From an uncultured delta proteobacterium (GTDB lineage Bacteria; Desulfobacterota; Desulfobacteria; Desulfobacterales; SpSt-501): a DNA stretch of 64,000 nt. The stretch is taken from the NCBI GenBank assembly GCA_963828345.1, contig CAWHEZ010000035.1:7540-71539 (forward strand), written 5' to 3'. Positions 3,608 through 50,466 of the stretch are shown in pieces (position 1 is the first letter of the stretch; each line of letters opens with the position of its first letter). Under the pieces are notes generated by a model that worked only from the letters and a program-made list of their open reading frames with translations, made no database searches and was not told where the DNA came from. Position numbers and translations under genes: made by a program.

Positions 3608-4943
3608 ATGCCCAACGATCCGCTCCATTTCACGATCAAGGACATTTTGAAAACCGAGGTGGCGCTGGCATTGGGCTGCACCGAGCCGGTCGCGATCGCC
3701 TTGAGCTCCGCGGCGGCCGCGGCGCTGCTGCCCGGCAAGGAAATCGTGTCGATCCAGGTCTGGGTCGATCCCAACATCTACAAGAACGGGATCGCGGTGC
3801 TTGATACCCGGTTCGGACGATCTGAGAGGCCTTGACGTCGCAGGCGCGCTGGGCGCCTTCGGCGGCAATCCGCTGCTGCGCCTCGAGGTCCTGCAGCCGA
3901 TCACCGAGGAGATCGCCCAGCGGGCCAAACGGTTCGTAGCGGAAAAGAAGGTCGACGTTCACATCGTCGCCGACTCGAAAGGGCTTTACATCCGCACGGT
4001 CGTCCGGACGGCAACCGACGAGGCCGAGTGCGTCATCAAGGGGCTGCACGACAACATCGTCGCGCTCGCGCTGAACGGCGCGCCCGTCACCGACAGCCCG
4101 CTGCTGAGCGGCGCGAGTGGAAGCCCGTCCAAGGCCGATTTGCAGGAGGTCGAGAACTGGCTGAGGACCCTTTCCCTCAAACGGCTGGTGGAGATGATCG
4201 ACGAGCTGGATGCCGAGGACCTGGCGTTCCTGGAGGAGGGCATTCAGACCAATCTGCGGCTGGCCGAGCATGGTCTGAAATTCGGCTCCGGGTTGGGGGT
4301 GGGCAAGACACTGGAACGGTTGGTGCGGCAGAAGCTGATCAACAGCGACATGATCGTGGCCGCCAAGATCCTCACCTCGGCGGCTTCGGATGCCCGGATG
4401 GCCGGCGTGTCTCTGCCGGCGATGAGCTCGGCCGGGAGCGGGAACCACGGGTTGACCGCCACGCTGCCGATCTGGGCGGTAAAGGATTTTCTGCAGTGCA
4501 AGCCCCAGACGGTGCTCGAGGCCGTCGGCCTCAGCCACCTCGTCACCGCCTATGTGAAAGCCCATACCGGCAGGCTTTCCGCCGTGTGCGGCTGCTCGAT
4601 CGCCGCCGGGGCCGGCGCGACGGCGGGGATCACCTACCTGCTCGGGGGCGGCCTTCACCACATGGCCAGCGCCATCATGAATCTGACCGAGGACCTGGCC
4701 GGCATCATCTGCGACGGCGCCAAGGCGGGCTGCTCCCTGAAGCTGCTGACCGCCGCCGGCAGCGCCGTCCAGGCCGCCCTGTTCGCCATTCACGGGGTCC
4801 GCGTCCAGTCGACGGACGGCATCATCGGCTTTTCGCCCGAACAGACCATGCGCAACGTCGGGAGGCTGAGCTCGCAGGGGATGATCGAAACCGACCGCAC
4901 CATCCTGAAAATCATGCTCGACAAGAAATTCCAGGATGTGTGA
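3608..4943 (+). pseudogene. UPF0597/YhaM-type L-cysteine desulfidase family protein, reading frame broken near 3797-3805
   Basis: The N-terminus MPNDPLHFTIKDILKTEVALALGCTEPVAIAL...NIYKNGIAV is in the frame of ORF 3191..3835. The family continues as IPGSDDLRGLDVAGALGAFGGNP in ORF 3801..4943, one frame over. Confidence 0.8.
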
Positions 4944-12302: not shown

Positions 12303-12920
12303 ATGGCGAACGAAAACCACGAAAACCGGACCTCCGTGCGGTTCACCCATGATTCCACGATCTCTCTCGAGCAGAACGAGGTCGGGATCCTGCACGAGGC
12401 CCGCATGTTCAACTACTCCTCGTCGGGACTCTACTTCGAGTCGGATTTTTACCTCATTCCCGGCACCGAGATCTTCATCGGTTTGAAGAGCTCGCCGTTC
12501 ACGTCCGCGCCCGGGGTTTACGAGTGCTATCGTTCGGCCATCAAATGGCGCAAGTACCTTGAGAACTCGGTCTTCGACTACGGGTACGGGGTCGAACTCA
12601 AGGGCAAGGCCCCGTCCCGGGGCGAGCCTCACCGCGCCCGCGCCCCGCGCCGCCACCCGCGGGCGTCCTGCACCATCCCCGCCCTGCTGCAGAACCAGAG
12701 CGAGAAGGCACGGGGCGTCATCCACAACGTGAGCCACGGCGGGGTGTTCGTCATGTGCGGCGGGACGTTCGCCGCCGGGCAGCGCCTGCAGCTCACCATC
12801 CCGCTGCGCAAACGGCAGAAGCTGATCACGCGCTTCGGCGAGGTGGTCTGGTCCGACCCCAACGGGCTCGGGATCAAGTTCGACGCCCAGGCCGCGGGCG
12901 AAACTCCCGACCCATCGTAA
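12303..12920 (+). CDS. Tandem PilZ-domain protein (putative c-di-GMP receptor)
   Basis: ORF track entry. Two RxxxR...(D/N)xSxxG signatures: RTSVR...NYSSSG and RRHPR...NVSHGG. Confidence 0.75.
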   Translation: MANENHENRTSVRFTHDSTISLEQNEVGILHEARMFNYSSSGLYFESDFYLIPGTEIFIGLKSSPFTSAPGVYECYRSAIKWRKYLENSVFDYGYGVELKGKAPSRGEPHRARAPRRHPRASCTIPALLQNQSEKARGVIHNVSHGGVFVMCGGTFAAGQRLQLTIPLRKRQKLITRFGEVVWSDPNGLGIKFDAQAAGETPDPS

Positions 12921-13008
12921 TCCAGCCTGCGTTCTTGACGGCCCATCCGGCACGGGTTAGCTTCACGTCGGTTCGACATCAAGCGACCCAACCGAACGGA
13001 GGACCGCT

Positions 13009-13626
13009 GTGACCACCCTGGAAATCTTCTCCGACTTCATCTGACCGTGGTGCTACTTCATTACCGTCGGTAGTGACCGGTTGACCCGCGAGTTCGAGAT
13101 CGACGTGCGCTGGGTGGCCTTCCCGCTGCACCCGGAAATCCCGCCCGAGGGCGTCACCCTCGAACGGCTGTTCGAGGGCCGCGGCATCGACATCGCTGCG
13201 GTGCTGAGCCGTCTCGAATCGGCCGCCCGCCAGTTCGGACTGCCGTTCGGGACGCGCCGCATGAGCTTCAATTCGCGCCGCGCCCAGGAGGGCGCCAAGT
13301 GGGCCGAGTCGCTGGGCCAGGCCGATGCCTACCACCGCGCGGTGTTCCAGGCCTACTTCGTGGACGGGCGGAACCTGCACGAGATGGAGACCCTCGTGCA
13401 GGCGGCCGAGTCGATTGGACTGGATGGCGCGGGCCTGAGCGAGGCCGTCCACACTCACGCCTACAAGGCCGCGGTCGACCAGGACTGGATGCGCTCGCAC
13501 CGGCTGGGGATCAGCGCCGTGCCCGCATTTCGGTTGCATGAAGAGGTGCGGGTCGGGGCGCAGCCCTACGAGCAGCTGGCCGCGTTCGCGTCGGCGCACC
13601 GTGTTCCCCGGCGCGCGGCCGGCTGA
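13009..13626 (+). CDS. DsbA/FrnE-like thiol:disulfide oxidoreductase with in-frame TGA (candidate selenocysteine) in a UPWC motif
   Basis: GTG at 13009 has GGAGG 6 nt upstream. Translation VTTLEIFSDFI-TGA(13042-13044)-PWCYFITVGSDRL runs in frame into ORF 13081..13626, which is DsbA family. The TGA sits where homologues have the first Cys of CPWC. Confidence 0.7.
13058..13076 (+). promoter_or_regulatory. Candidate bacterial SECIS hairpin
   Basis: 8-bp stem 13058-13065 / 13069-13076 (one G-U pair) with apical GUC. It begins 13 nt after the TGA. Confidence 0.45.
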
Positions 13627-16891: not shown

Positions 16892-18433
16892 TCACAGCGA
16901 CGCCGACGACTCCTCCAGCGGGTTCCGTTTCAGGTACTCGAGCCGGTTCAAGCCGTTGACGTACGCCTTGGCGCTCGCGGTGATGATGTCGGCATCTGCC
17001 CCCTTGCCGAGGGCCAACAGTCCGTTCTCGCTCAGACGCACCGTCACCTCCCCCATGGCATCCGTGCCGCCGGTGAGGGCGCTCACCGAGAAGCGCAGCA
17101 GCTCGGAGGCCGTGCCCGTGAGCTTGGCGATGGTGTTGAAGGCGGCGTCGATCGGCCCGTTGCCGTAGCCGGCATCCTGCGCGGGCCGGCCGTTGATGTT
17201 CAGGCGCACGCTCGCCATGGGCAGGACGGTCGTGCCGGCCGTGACGTGCAGGTAGTCGAGCTTGAAGACGTCCGCGGTCCGCAGGATGCCCTCGGTCACG
17301 ATGGCCTCCAGGTCCTCGTCCACCACGTGTTTCTTCTTGTCCGCCAGTTCCTTGAACTTGGTGAACACCAGATTCAGCTCATCGTCCGAGAGGTCGTAGC
17401 CCAGGTCCTTCAGGTGGGAGCGCAGGGCGTGGCGGCCGGAGTGCTTGCCCAGGACGAGCTTGGTGGCGCTGAGGCCGATCGTCTCCGGTCGCATGATCTC
17501 GTAGGTCATCGGGTTTTTGAGGATCCCGTCCTGGTGGATGCCGGCCTCGTGCGCGAAGGCGTTGGCCCCGACGATCGCCTTGTTCGCCTGCACGAGCATG
17601 CCCGTGACCATGCTGACCAGCCGGCTGGTGGGGTGGATGAACTCGGTGCGAATGGAGGTCTTCGCAGAGAGGTAGTCGCCGCGCGTGTGCAGCGCCATGA
17701 CCACCTCCTCGAGCGAGGTGTTGCCCGCGCGCTCGCCGATGCCGTTGATCGTGACTTCGGCCTGGCGCGCGCCCGCCTGGACGGCCGCGAGCGTGTTGGA
17801 GGTGGCCAGGCCCAGGTCGTTGTGGCAGTGGACGCTCAGCACGGCCTTGCCGATGTTGGGCGTGTGGCTGCGGAGGTAGCGGACCAGCTCGGCAAACTCC
17901 TGGGGGATGGCGTAGCCGACCGTGTCGGGCAGGTTCACCGTGGTCGCGCCCGCTTCGATGGCGGCCTCGAAGATGCGGCAGAGGTAGTCCCGGTCGCTGC
18001 GCGAACCGTCCTCGGCCGAAAACTCCACGTTCGGGGTGAGGGTGCGCGCATAGCGCACTGCCTCCACGGCGGCCCGCACCACCTCGTCGCGGTTCATCTT
18101 GAGTTTGTACTGCAGGTGGATGTCCGAGGTCGCGATGAAGGTGTGGATGCGCGGGCTCGCGGCGTGCTGCACGGCCTTCCAGGCGCGGTCGATGTCGTGG
18201 CGCGTGGCGCGCGCCAGAGCGGCCACCTCGGCCCGCTTCAGGCGGCCGGCGATCTGGCTGACGGCCTCCAGGTCGCCGTCCGAGGCCGCCGGGAACCCCG
18301 CCTCGATCACGTCGACCCCGAGCTTTTCCAGCTGCACCGCCAGCCGCAGTTTCTCCGCCGAGTTCATGCTGGCCCCGGGGCTCTGCTCCCCGTCTCTCAG
18401 GGTGGTGTCGAAGATGATCACGCGTTCGGTCAT
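16892..18433 (-). CDS. leuA: 2-isopropylmalate synthase
   Basis: ORF track entry. MTERVIIFDTTLRDGEQSPGASM..., full length 513 aa. Confidence 0.93.
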   Translation of the reverse strand: MTERVIIFDTTLRDGEQSPGASMNSAEKLRLAVQLEKLGVDVIEAGFPAASDGDLEAVSQIAGRLKRAEVAALARATRHDIDRAWKAVQHAASPRIHTFIATSDIHLQYKLKMNRDEVVRAAVEAVRYARTLTPNVEFSAEDGSRSDRDYLCRIFEAAIEAGATTVNLPDTVGYAIPQEFAELVRYLRSHTPNIGKAVLSVHCHNDLGLATSNTLAAVQAGARQAEVTINGIGERAGNTSLEEVVMALHTRGDYLSAKTSIRTEFIHPTSRLVSMVTGMLVQANKAIVGANAFAHEAGIHQDGILKNPMTYEIMRPETIGLSATKLVLGKHSGRHALRSHLKDLGYDLSDDELNLVFTKFKELADKKKHVVDEDLEAIVTEGILRTADVFKLDYLHVTAGTTVLPMASVRLNINGRPAQDAGYGNGPIDAAFNTIAKLTGTASELLRFSVSALTGGTDAMGEVTVRLSENGLLALGKGADADIITASAKAYVNGLNRLEYLKRNPLEESSASL

Positions 18434-18442
18434 GGTGGACTC

Positions 18443-20053
18443 CTATCGGGTGGTGGGGGATTCGGAATTGGCGCCGGAGACCGGCTCTGCGCCGCGGCTG
18501 AGCTTGTAGTGGAAGCTGTCCGCCAGCGCCTGCCAGCTGGCTTCGATGATGTCCTCGGACACGCCGATCGTGCTCCAGACGTGGTCCGGGTCGCGCGAGT
18601 CGATCAGCACGCGCACGCGCGCGGCGGTGCCGCGGCTGCCGTCGATCACGCGCACCTTGAAATCCGTCAGGCGCATGTCGCCCAGGTCCGGGTAGAAGCG
18701 GCCGAGCGCCTTGCGCAGGGCGTTGTCCAGCGCGCTGACGGGCCCGTAGCCCTCGGCCGCCGTGATTTCACTCCGGCCGTCGACCGCGATTTTGACCGTG
18801 GCGTGCGCCCGGCAGGGCTGATCCTTGTCCTTCTCGATCGTGACACGGAACGACTCGAGTTCGAAGAGCGGCCGGAAGGTCTCGGTCAGCTTCTGGATGA
18901 GCACCTTGAAGGAGCCGTCCGCCGCATCGAACTGGTAGCCGTCCTGCTCCATCTGCTTGATCTCGGAGACGATGCGGCGGCTGTCGGCGTCGGGCAACTC
19001 GATGTCCAGGCCGAGCTCGCGCGCCTTGTACTCCACGTTGCTGCGGCCCGAGAGGTCGGACACGAGCACCCGGCGGTGGTTGCCCACGCGTTCGGGGGCC
19101 ATGTGCTCGTACGCTTCCGGGTGTTTCATGATGGCGCTCACATGCACGCCGCCCTTGTGGGCGAAGGCGCTGCGCCCCACGAACGGCCGGCTGTGCAGCG
19201 GCACCATGTTGGCCGTCTCGCCCACGAAGCGCGAGAGGGACTTGAGCTTTTTCAGGTTCGCCTCGGACATGCAGGCCCGGCCCATCTTGAGCTGCAGGAC
19301 CGGGGCGACCGCCGTGAGGTCGGTGTTGCCGCAACGCTCCCCGTAGCCGTTGACCGTCCCGTGCACCATGACGGCGCCGGCCTGCACCGCGGCGATGGAG
19401 TTGGCCAGCGCCAGGCCGCAGTCGTTGTGAGCGTGGATGCCCAGGCGCACCCCGCTGCCCAGGTGGGCGCGCACGCGGGCCATGACCTCCGGGACGTCGA
19501 AGGGCAGGGTGCCCCCGTTCGTGTCGCACAGGACCACGGTGTCCGCCCCGGCCTGCGCGGCTGCGGCGATGGTCGCCAAGGCGTACCCGGGATCGGCCCG
19601 GAACCCGTCAAAGAAGTGCTCGGCGTCGTAGATGACGTCGCGCCCGTTTTGCCGCAGATGGCCGACCGTGTCCCGGATCATCGCGACGTTTTCGTCGAGT
19701 CGGGTGCCCATGACGGCCGTGACGTGAAAGTCCCAGCTCTTGCCGAAAACGGTCACCAGCGAGGTGCCGCAGTCGAGGAGTGCCCGCAGGTGCGGGTCGT
19801 TTTCGGCCGCCCGTCCCGGCTTGCGGGTGCAGCCGAAGGCGGCCAGGCGGGCGTGGGCGAAGACCGCCTTCCGGGCGAGCTCGAAGAACTGCAGGTCCTT
19901 GGGATTGGACCCCGGCCAGCCCCCTTCGATGAAGTGGATGCCGATGTCGTCCAGGCGCAGGGCGATCTTGAGCTTTTCCTCGGCGCTGAACGAGATGCCC
20001 TCGCCCTGGCTGCCGTCGCGCAGGGTGGTGTCGTAGAGAAGGACAGGGTCCAC
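18443..20053 (-). CDS. cimA: (R)-citramalate synthase
   Basis: ORF track entry. LLYDTTLRDGSQGEGISFSAEEKLKIALRLDDIGIHFIEGGWPGSNPKD, 536 aa, CimA-type LeuA paralogue. Confidence 0.85.
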   Translation of the reverse strand: MDPVLLYDTTLRDGSQGEGISFSAEEKLKIALRLDDIGIHFIEGGWPGSNPKDLQFFELARKAVFAHARLAAFGCTRKPGRAAENDPHLRALLDCGTSLVTVFGKSWDFHVTAVMGTRLDENVAMIRDTVGHLRQNGRDVIYDAEHFFDGFRADPGYALATIAAAAQAGADTVVLCDTNGGTLPFDVPEVMARVRAHLGSGVRLGIHAHNDCGLALANSIAAVQAGAVMVHGTVNGYGERCGNTDLTAVAPVLQLKMGRACMSEANLKKLKSLSRFVGETANMVPLHSRPFVGRSAFAHKGGVHVSAIMKHPEAYEHMAPERVGNHRRVLVSDLSGRSNVEYKARELGLDIELPDADSRRIVSEIKQMEQDGYQFDAADGSFKVLIQKLTETFRPLFELESFRVTIEKDKDQPCRAHATVKIAVDGRSEITAAEGYGPVSALDNALRKALGRFYPDLGDMRLTDFKVRVIDGSRGTAARVRVLIDSRDPDHVWSTIGVSEDIIEASWQALADSFHYKLSRGAEPVSGANSESPTTR

Positions 20054-26187: not shown

Positions 26188-27319
26188 TCAATCGTGTGCA
26201 TCGGCCTTCCCGTCGGCGGCCGAAAAGAATTTTCCGGGCTGCTGGGTGACGAGGCCTTTTAATTCCAGTTGCAGCAGGATGCCGGACAGGTCCCCGGCAT
26301 CGAGCGACAGGGTGCGCACCAGTTCGTCGATGTGCAAGGGGTAGGGGCCCAGGGCGCCGAGAACGTCGGACTCTTTCGCGGTCAGCGAGGGGTGCGTTTG
26401 CGAGCGGACCGCGCGGGCATCCGGCGGCGCCGCGGCGTACCCGAGCTCGGATAGAATGTCCTGCACGTTTTCGACGAGCTTGGCGCCCTCCTTGATCAGC
26501 GTGTGGGTCCCCGTGCTTTTGAAGGACTGCACGCTTCCGGGCACGGCGAACACCTCGCGGTTCTGCTCGGCCGCCAACCGTGCGGTGATCAGCGAGCCGC
26601 TGTTGCGGGTGGCTTCGACCACCACGGTCCCGAGCGACATCCCGCTGATGATGCGGTTGCGCACCGGGAAGTGGTGCGGTTCGGGGTCGGCGTCGATCGG
26701 GAACTCCGAGACGACGGCTCCCCGCGCGGCGATGCGGTCGAACAGGCGGCGGTGCTGGGGCGGGTAGACCTTCGCGAGGCCGCTGCCCAGCACGGCGACC
26801 GTGCGGCCCCCGCCCGCCAGCGCGCCTTCGTGCGCCGCCGCGTCGATGCCGACCGCCATCCCGCTGACCACCGTGAAGCCGATGGCGGCGAGGTCGGCGC
26901 AGAGTCGGTGGGTCGTGTCTCACCCCGTATGAGGTGGCGTGGCGCGAGCCGACCACCGCGATCGGCCGTTCGAGGCCCTCCAACTCCCCGTGCACATACA
27001 GCATCGGCGGCGGGTCCGGGATCTCCCTGAGCAGCCGGGGGTACGCCGGGTCGCTCAGGGTGACGATCCTGAATCCGTTGCGGCAGGCCCCTTCGATTTC
27101 GGCCCTGCCGGCGTCGGGCGCCCGGTGCGACCGCATGGCGTCCACCGTGCGGCGGTTGATCCCCTCCACGCGTCCGAGCTCGGCCATGGGCGCGCCCAAT
27201 GCGGCCTCGGGGGACCCGAAACGTTCGATCAACCGTTTGAAGAGGTGGTTCCCTACTCCGGGGACGCTCTTCAGCTCGAACCAGGGCAGGAGCTCGTCCA
27301 CGTGGTCGCGCGCGTTCAA
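26188..27319 (-). pseudogene. dprA: DNA-processing protein DprA (Smf), reading frame broken near 26918-26923
   Basis: TTG at 27319 has GGGGAGG upstream. The N-terminus ...IAVVGSRHATSYG is in one frame. The continuation DTTHRLCADLAAIGFTVVSGMAVGIDAAAHEGAL... is in ORF 26188..26871. Confidence 0.8.
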
Positions 27320-49011: not shown

Positions 49012-50466
49012 GTGTCCGAGACCGTCGACATCGTAAAGGAGACTGAAACCGCGGGGGGCTTTGCGGCCCTCGACCCGGGCGAGTTGGACGACCTCGTCTC
49101 GCCGGCGCCGGACGCCGTCCGCCCGGCCGAGGCCGCCGCCGTCGACGTCGCGGTTCCCGCGGCCGCCGTGCCCCCCGGGGTCGTACCGGTCGAGGCGGCC
49201 GCGGAAGCCGCGACGGTCGATGGTTCTGCGACCGCAGTCCCCGTCGCGCTGAAGGCCGTCGAGGCCCGGAGCCGATTGCGCCGGCACGGCCGGATGCTGG
49301 CCGTCGTCTGTGCCGCTCTTCTGGCAGCGGGCGGGGCGGCGTGGGTGGTCCAGCGCCATCTCTACCCGCCGCCCGGGGTCGAACATCCGGCCCCGGCCGT
49401 CTCCGAACCGGTCGCGGCCGACCTGGAGGCCGTCAGCTCGAGTGCGCCTGCGGCCATGGACCGGCTGGAGTGGGAGGCCGTGTTCCGCGAAATCGAGGCG
49501 TTCCGGCACCTGCTGTTCGACAAGCGGGACGAGATCCTGCGCTTGCAGCGCCATTACGACTACGGCATCCGCGAGCTCGAGGAGGAGGCGGTGCGGCTGA
49601 TCAAGGAGAGCGGGTGCGGGACGCTTGCGGCCGCGCTCAAGCACCCGCCGCTCGAGCTCCTGCTGCAGGGAATCCAGCGGCGTCAGGCCTACCGCGACGC
49701 ATTGGGCCAGCCCCTTCGCCGGCTGGAATCGGGGGCCGAAGAGCTGCTGTTCCTGCAGCGCCGGGCGTACATCGACCTGCAGGTGCTCGACGTCGCGCAG
49801 GGGCTCGACCTGCAGGCGCAACACCAGGCCATCCGGTCGGCCCTGCGGGCGCACGAGCCCACGGTGGAGAGCCTCTCGATTCGCGCGGCCGGCGCATCGG
49901 CGTCCCAGGAGCTGCTGTGGCGGCGCCTGGCCGAGCAGGCACGGCAGACGACCTTCAACGCGGAGGACCGCGTCAACCAAAGCATCGTCGCCGAAGCGTG
50001 CGCCGGGAACCTGGGCCGGCTGGCGGAGCTGACGACGCTCTCCCTGAAGGGCGCCGGCTGCCTTGCGGAGTCGGGCACCCAGGAGCTTTTCCTGAACCGG
50101 GTCAACCAGCTCTCGCCGCTGGCGGCGCAGAAGCTTGCGGAGTGGCCGGGCCGCTGGCTCGGCCTGAACGGGCTCAAGCGGCTGCCACCCGAAACGGCCC
50201 GGGAGCTGTTCGCCTGGCCCGGGGAGTGGATCTCGCTGAACGGCCTGAGCGAGATGGCGCCCGAGGCGGGTCGATACCTCGCCGGCTGGAGGGGGCGCCA
50301 GGTCGAGCTGATGGGGTTGCGCAGGCTGAGCGCGCTCGACGCCCTCCTGGAGTGGGAGGCGTCGGGCGGAAAACTCTTCGTGCCGGGGGACATTCGCCAG
50401 GCGATCGACACGCTGCGCCAGGCGGGCAACGCCCCCGGACGTCCCGCGACGGGACAGGCCAGGTGA
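49012..50466 (+). CDS. Hypothetical membrane-anchored protein with coiled coil and C-terminal repeats of about 24 aa
   Basis: ORF track entry, 484 aa, GTG start. One transmembrane helix (MLAVVCAALLAAGGAAWVV). Repeats WPGRWLGLNGLKRLPPETARELFA / WPGEWISLNGLSEMAPEAGRYLAG / WRGRQVELMGLRRLSALDALLEW. Confidence 0.6.
   Translation: MSETVDIVKETETAGGFAALDPGELDDLVSPAPDAVRPAEAAAVDVAVPAAAVPPGVVPVEAAAEAATVDGSATAVPVALKAVEARSRLRRHGRMLAVVCAALLAAGGAAWVVQRHLYPPPGVEHPAPAVSEPVAADLEAVSSSAPAAMDRLEWEAVFREIEAFRHLLFDKRDEILRLQRHYDYGIRELEEEAVRLIKESGCGTLAAALKHPPLELLLQGIQRRQAYRDALGQPLRRLESGAEELLFLQRRAYIDLQVLDVAQGLDLQAQHQAIRSALRAHEPTVESLSIRAAGASASQELLWRRLAEQARQTTFNAEDRVNQSIVAEACAGNLGRLAELTTLSLKGAGCLAESGTQELFLNRVNQLSPLAAQKLAEWPGRWLGLNGLKRLPPETARELFAWPGEWISLNGLSEMAPEAGRYLAGWRGRQVELMGLRRLSALDALLEWEASGGKLFVPGDIRQAIDTLRQAGNAPGRPATGQAR

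Follow-up and report, generated by a model that had tools for sequence, protein, structure and literature searches.

Here we describe a gene at positions 13009–13626 (+) of the window, the 64-kb stretch of DNA analysed here, that is very probably a genuine selenoprotein gene, with the UGA at 13042 decoded as selenocysteine (Sec), as judged from comparative sequence analysis. The full coding sequence would specify a Sec-containing FrnE/DsbA-like oxidoreductase of 205 residues with Sec (U) at position 12, and it ends at a TGA stop codon (13624–13626 (+)). A Shine-Dalgarno sequence, GGAGG, lies at 12998–13002 (+) and is separated by a 6-nt spacer from the GTG start codon at 13009 (+), in exact agreement with the initial annotation of this DNA. 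From the GTG the frame runs through eleven codons, V/M-TTLEIFSDFI, to the in-frame TGA at 13042–13044 (+), and this too reads as that annotation had it. The TGA codon, U12, aligns with the N-terminal Cys of a CxxC motif. Beyond it the translation continues as PWCYFITVG, PWCYFITVGSDRLTREF..., and stays open to 13624–13626. The TGC at 13051–13053 (+) encodes Cys15, the predicted resolving Cys of a UPWC motif; it is the sole Cys of the 205-residue protein, and the position is a Cys in all 77 distinct family sequences. An in-frame start 5' of the TGA that is linked to a Shine-Dalgarno sequence was found in 77 of 82 family members. In the mechanical ORF list the gene begins at a TTG (13081–13083 (+)) and yields a 181-aa product; we regard this start as a mis-call by which β1 and the active site are lost.

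The predicted protein spans an almost complete DsbA domain. With Sec modelled as Cys, a Pfam search matched PF01323 (DSBA) at E=5e-30, with 105 bits against a cut-off of 25.6, over residues 3–191 and profile positions 1–187 of 191. Since the match begins at residue 3, the 24 codons before 13081 are part of the domain, including the active site, and a start at 13081 would excise that site. The initial annotation had made the same point about the 13081 start, and the Pfam profile, which needs residues 5' of 13081, bears it out. The D. radiodurans FrnE structure 5cnw aligned at an E-value of 1.3e-17, with query residues 4–191 matched to chain residues 14–212. Here U12 corresponds to FrnE C22 and C15 to FrnE C25, and the FrnE segment DIWSDIACPWCY stands opposite EIFSDFIUPWCY. 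Further along the same alignment, ISAVPAF stands opposite ITGVPFF of FrnE. The Pro of this AVP motif, Pro172 (CCC, 13522–13524 (+)), is an invariant column in the homologue alignment, and we take the motif, from general knowledge of thioredoxin folds, to be probably the cis-Pro loop.

Cys occupies the U12 position in the homologues P0020 (KIFSDYVCPWCYF) and P0087 (EIFSDFTCPWCYL) and in FrnE, at C22 (DIWSDIACPWCYI). The initial annotation had stated that Cys-containing homologues read (I/V)FSDxxCPWCY at the TGA, which is what these three show, and it had proposed an alignment against DsbA/FrnE homologues; aligned to such homologues, the TGA position is Cys in these three proteins, and it is TGA in all 80 genome loci. 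With its active site already at residue 12, the selenoprotein could not accommodate a signal peptide and is therefore likely cytoplasmic. Two other family identities were rejected. No NCBIfam model covers the protein, and the sole match, to the Rcas_1661 family thioredoxin-like (seleno)lipoprotein (NF041057), covers the C-terminal half only and, at 40.7 bits, lies far below the cut-off of 190. The missing model helps to explain the systematic truncation of these proteins in databases. An HCCA isomerase/GST-kappa identity was suggested by a weak 2imd match alone (E=8e-5), and to our knowledge these enzymes have no CxxC site.

Truncation is widespread among the deposited homologues. A protein database search returned 309 homologues at E≤1e-10, of which 120 were listed. 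In 117 of these 120, query coverage was at most 89%, the length was 140–202 aa and the N-terminus was missing, with truncated "start" positions that vary among homologues. The full-length homologues among the matches listed were P0020 (CPWC), P0087 (CPWC) and P0051 (WPWC). Eleven contigs encode precisely the 181-aa product, and it is this product that the databases hold, much as the initial annotation anticipated in saying that gene callers truncate the gene.

At the DNA level the picture is uniform. A genome scan with one genome per species gave 400 related stretches. The 80 best of the 400 were retained; these loci come nearly all from Desulfobacterota or "delta proteobacterium" MAGs, at 47–93% protein identity, and their tblastn matches extend to query residues 1–4. 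The aligned codon is TGA in 80/80 genome loci and in the metagenome contig L081; among the 80, no TAA, TAG or Cys codon occurs at this place. In these loci the TGA is preceded by (I/V)(F/Y)SD(Y/F)(I/V) and followed by PWCYF. Across the 77 distinct sequences, the codons 5' of the TGA carry 0.66–1.79 bits at third positions and near 0 at second positions, so that the 11 upstream codons, whose conservation the initial annotation had wished to see examined, are indeed conserved with a coding-type substitution pattern. That annotation had also named two observations that would speak against a selenoprotein: a conserved start at or after 13081 without conservation of 13009–13041, and TGC or TGT at 13042–13044. 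Relatives do conserve 13009–13041, and TGA is present in all four independent assemblies of the same gene, which come from different ENA samples and include one k141 short-read-style contig and two contigs with SNPs elsewhere in the gene. Within the window, 33 of the 51 ORFs listed by a composition filter terminate in TGA, and therefore UGA is not globally reassigned; as the commonest ordinary stop in the window, it leaves no place for that explanation.

Two of the records deserve separate mention. P0051 (ENA ERZ23498357 scaffold_468848, L081:333–335) was deposited with Trp at the Sec position, and its DNA has TGA. The L081 locus does not yield P0051 under table 11, and the caller evidently used a code in which TGA specifies Trp. 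L006 (JBLMXM010000245.1, Hyphomicrobiales bacterium MAG256) carries an alphaproteobacterial label and holds a Sec-form gene that is 68% identical to that of the window; mis-binning of the contig or horizontal transfer may account for this.

Directly downstream of the TGA lies a candidate SECIS element. Its core is a hairpin at 13058–13076 (+) with an 8-bp stem (13058–13065 / 13069–13076) and a GUC loop (13066–13068). The core begins 13 nt after the TGA and folds at −8.1 kcal/mol alone and at −16.3 to −19.3 kcal/mol with a lower stem; the extended stem-loop of lower stem and core occupies 13046–13090 (+), at −16.3 kcal/mol. The lower stem was predicted just for the window and its nearest relative and is not conserved family-wide. 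The criteria for bacterial SECIS (bSECIS) elements given in PMC13188914 are a loop of 3–9 nt, an upper stem of 4–16 bp, a G in the first two loop positions, a spacing of 16–37 nt between UGA and loop, and an MFE of −7.5 kcal/mol or lower. With its GUC loop, 8-bp stem, 21-nt spacing and −16.3 kcal/mol, the window hairpin falls within all of these bounds. An equally good SECIS-type hairpin arose in 4 of 200 codon-shuffled controls of the window sequence, and the 59-nt fold of the window alone has a modest z-score of −1.57.

The hairpin also covaries across the family. The SECIS alignment holds 81 sequences and is gap-free in codon register. In the helix columns 16–23 / 29–36, 88% of cells are paired, versus 22–61% when the partner strand is slid by 1–3 columns. 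At pair 21–31, 54 sequences have U-A and 27 have C-G, and none of the 81 breaks it. One base of this pair is the synonymous third position of an Ile codon and the other, ten bases away, the first position of an Ile/Val codon, and nothing at the protein level explains why the two covary. Pair 19–33 occurs as AU, GC, UA or UG. Both the covariation score and the count of double changes were reached in 0 of 500 shuffles, which ignore phylogeny, and RNAalifold independently predicts the same stem. Synonymous sites in the stem are also frozen, with TTC invariant and ACC and CGT nearly so. The hairpin reported by the initial annotation, with 8 bp and an apical GUC at 13058–13076, therefore has both the published features of a bacterial SECIS and compensatory changes among relatives. 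Most members differ in having a mid-stem U-U mismatch and a 5-nt CGGGC loop, because of which many of them fail a strict contiguous-stem reading: by MFE folding, 36/82 members pass the strict SECIS criteria i–iii, and 26 of these also reach −7.5 kcal/mol. Searches of Rfam gave no match of any kind over the whole window at the gathering threshold, and no SECIS match over 12950–13200 at a permissive E-value. Bacterial SECIS elements are family-specific, so this result is expected and uninformative.

The Cys forms differ from one another at the place of the SECIS. L083 has no hairpin there (−0.7 kcal/mol). The other, L082:846–893 (ENA ERZ27247228 k141_1508126, encoding P0020), has TGC and still carries a SECIS-like hairpin, one almost identical to that of the Desulfarculaceae Sec forms L010 and L020. 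L082 seems to have exchanged Sec for Cys very recently and to have kept its SECIS as a fossil, as PMC1794560 (Fig. 4) describes for recent conversions of this kind. Upstream of the L082 homologue, in divergent orientation, is a gene for a thioredoxin that carries a zinc ribbon.

We also looked for the Sec machinery and for genomic context. ARAGORN found zero tRNAs in the 64-kb window, hence no selC there, and Pfam scans of 40 window ORFs did not find SelA, SelB or SelD. When the window was scanned for other genes with an in-frame TGA flanked by high GC3 on either side, all candidates proved to be antisense or stop-codon artefacts, so the window holds no second selenoprotein as an independent sign that the organism decodes Sec. 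We infer Sec decoding in the host because the TGA and SECIS are conserved family-wide and because deltaproteobacteria are selenium-rich: in a 2006 survey (PMC1794560), 10 of 11 sequenced Deltaproteobacteria were selenoprotein-rich. Clustering of the neighbourhoods of 80 loci gave no conserved redox partner or substrate pointer. The sole recurrent neighbour is a PilZ-domain gene (window 12303–12920 (+)), which lies directly upstream and holds the same position in about 11 related loci; a functional link is not evident. The downstream neighbour is a convergent B12-binding radical SAM gene. In a scan of the gene's surroundings, no promoter or terminator signal rose above background.

Several other features of the window were recorded. 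The dprA gene (26188–27319 (−)) is apparently split over two reading frames, with Pfam DNA_processg_A positions 4–61 in the frame of the long topA ORF (about 26917–27079) and positions 78–211 plus the DprA winged-helix domain in the ORF at 26188–26871. The split, through a frameshift or an assembly indel, produces a spurious 1143-aa "DprA-TopA" ORF. A serine-dehydratase-alpha-like gene (3801–4943 (+)) is 444 aa long in L084:125–1459 and appears as a 75-aa fragment and a 380-aa ORF in L085:385–1720 and in the window; assemblies of one and the same organism differ here by an indel. Next to ilvC, ilvN and ilvB lies a tandem pair of LeuA/HMGL-like synthase paralogues of 513 and 536 aa (16892–20053 (−)), presumably a 2-isopropylmalate synthase and a citramalate or homocitrate-type synthase. 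A 484-aa ORF at 49012–50466 (+) has strongly coding-type composition (GC3 0.89) and no Pfam match at E≤1e-4.

Three other explanations for the locus have to be weighed. If the true start were the TTG at 13081, the product would be a truncated DsbA-like domain without CxxC, and 13009–13080 would be an untranslated leader. The mechanical ORF does begin there, and the databases hold many homologues that are similarly short beside the 181-aa product itself. However, the truncated starts fall at differing positions in different homologues, 81 relatives keep LEIFSDx(I/V) and PWCYF while varying mainly at third codon positions, and both the Pfam profile and the FrnE alignment run across the TGA. The GGAGG sequence, moreover, precedes GTG 13009, and the bases just upstream of 13081 contain no GGAGG-type Shine-Dalgarno sequence, all of which makes initiation at 13081 extremely unlikely. 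That an ordinary CPWC gene acquired the TGA by nonsense mutation, as a pseudogene, or through faulty sequencing or assembly is hardly credible at all. TGA is a single base from TGC or TGT, and signs of assembly indels do occur elsewhere in the window, in dprA and the serine-dehydratase-like gene; yet the codon is TGA in the four independent assemblies, the short-read-style k141 contig among them, and in 80/80 other species, with TAA or TAG in none, and the remainder of the gene is under purifying selection. Because conservation, coding signature, assemblies and genetic code agree, we consider sequencing error, pseudogene and truncated gene to be excluded.

The remaining explanation is readthrough, in which a near-cognate or suppressor tRNA inserts Trp, Cys or Gly at the UGA, for example after loss of the Sec machinery. 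This would fit with the machinery not being found within the 64-kb window and with the one database record, P0051, that renders the homologous TGA as W. That W reflects a mis-set genetic code in the caller, since the locus is mismatched under table 11, and UGA is otherwise the commonest ordinary stop of the window (33/51 listed ORFs). Readthrough of this kind would also give no role to a compensatorily conserved hairpin at canonical SECIS distance, and it would place Trp or Gly at a nucleophilic Cys position that is functional only with Sec or Cys. Given in addition the selenoprotein-rich Deltaproteobacteria of the 2006 survey (10/11; PMC1794560), we consider it highly unlikely, and decoding of the UGA as Sec is the reading we prefer.

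If the UGA is decoded as Sec, the gene would encode a 205-residue cytoplasmic FrnE-type (DsbA-family) thiol-disulfide oxidoreductase with the active site U12-P-W-C15. The hairpin at 13058–13076 would act as the SECIS and recruit SelB with Sec-tRNA(Sec) to the ribosome, and UGA 13042 would thereby be decoded as selenocysteine and not as termination. In the folded enzyme, the U12 selenolate, at the N-terminus of helix α1, would attack substrate disulfides, and Cys15 would resolve the mixed selenenyl-sulfide to give an intramolecular Se-S bond. This bond would then be recycled by a cellular reductant, for which the thioredoxin system is the obvious candidate. Because the C-terminal CXXXXC of FrnE is absent, recycling would have to use a reductant other than that tail. 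A Sec site, being of low potential, would favour reduction or isomerisation over oxidation.

Sec forms outnumber Cys forms 81 to 2 among the sequences found. A tentative reading, and one we think doubtful, is that these proteins make up a distinct, Desulfobacterota-wide cytoplasmic FrnE-type clade in which Sec is essentially fixed and the C-terminal CXXXXC tail is lacking. If true, this would imply a selenium-specific function and a further recycling partner, and the peptide YFITGR(I/V)E would be partly dictated by the overlapping RNA hairpin.

Biologically, the gene is an ordinary selenoprotein gene of a family described 20 years ago, and the value of the result is practical and incremental. 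For annotation, the active site is missing from 117/120 listed database homologues, another is mistranslated and NCBIfam offers no model. The 81-sequence alignment is one of the cleaner covariation-supported bacterial SECIS hairpins and could seed a family model, which in turn could serve automatic annotation correction. Within a large clade of anaerobic bacteria, sulfate reducers and syntrophs, the Sec form predominates, which adds to the picture of these organisms as heavy selenium users. As an uncharacterised, predicted cytoplasmic redox enzyme, the selenoprotein itself merits biochemical work.

By domain and motif, the window gene is a member of the known "DsbA-like" UxxC selenoprotein family (COG2761/PF01323), known since 2005. 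The "DsbA-like protein" selenoprotein family was described in PMC1088965 (Zhang, Fomenko & Gladyshev 2005) and PMC1794560 (Zhang et al. 2006); in the Sargasso Sea data it comprised 9 sequences of COG2761 with UxxC and a loop-G SECIS (PMC1088965). Later records add Anaeromyxobacter, Desulfovibrio desulfuricans and Desulfotomaculum as hosts, as well as the Olavius delta1 symbiont (PMC1976440), and a 2026 review lists "DsbA-like protein form 1, PF01323, UxxC" (PMC13188914). The initial annotation did not mention that this family was already described. The window protein and the published family share the same Pfam domain, the same UxxC with Sec for the first Cys, a SECIS directly downstream with a small G-containing apical loop, and an occurrence in sulfate-reducing and syntrophic deltaproteobacteria; nothing categorical differs. 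COG/Pfam assignment and motif point to subfamily identity with the published exemplars (AACY01178397, NIP15863.1). The difference is one of numbers: the early surveys held 4–9 sequences, whereas the Sec form is present here in 80/80 genomes (the best 80 of 400) and makes up most of the database hits, where 117 of the 120 listed are N-truncated.

The hairpin resembles the E. coli fdhF-type or consensus bSECIS in being an intra-CDS hairpin directly 3' of the UGA with a small apical loop starting G-U. We know of no sequence resemblance between the window hairpin and the E. coli fdhF element. In the wider family, the CGGGC loop and the mid-stem mismatch depart from the bSECIS consensus, which derives from Zhang & Gladyshev 2005 as summarised in PMC13188914.

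E. coli-type DsbA is a periplasmic disulfide oxidase with DsbB as its partner. The window protein shares with periplasmic DsbA a thioredoxin fold with a helical insertion (the same Pfam family) and a CxxC-type site, which is UPWC here versus CPHC there. Identity with periplasmic DsbA was rejected, since an active site at residue 12 makes a signal peptide impossible. Neither the window nor the related loci showed a DsbB-like gene nearby.

The closest solved structure is that of D. radiodurans FrnE (DR_0659; 5cnw/5cp1), a cytoplasmic DsbA-family disulfide reductase/isomerase. As in FrnE, the active site is near the N-terminus, there is no signal peptide and the (A/G)VP loop is conserved. Other features of the FrnE subfamily, whole-domain similarity and a CP(W/F)C-type site in that N-terminal position, are also present, with UPWC in place of the FrnE CPWC and Sec in place of Cys22. 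The window protein ends at residue 205, compared with 260 residues in FrnE, and, with Cys15 as its only Cys, lacks the C-terminal 239-CXXXXC-244 tail, which has been proposed to regenerate the active site (PMC8945050). The tail is also missing from the S. roseofulvus and D. maricopensis FrnE proteins, for which other recycling has been suggested (PMC8945050). In vitro, D. radiodurans FrnE reduces insulin and has isomerase activity, and the mutant is sensitive to cadmium and diamide (PMC8945050). By analogy with this enzyme, we infer a role for the window selenoprotein as a cytoplasmic disulfide reductase/isomerase.
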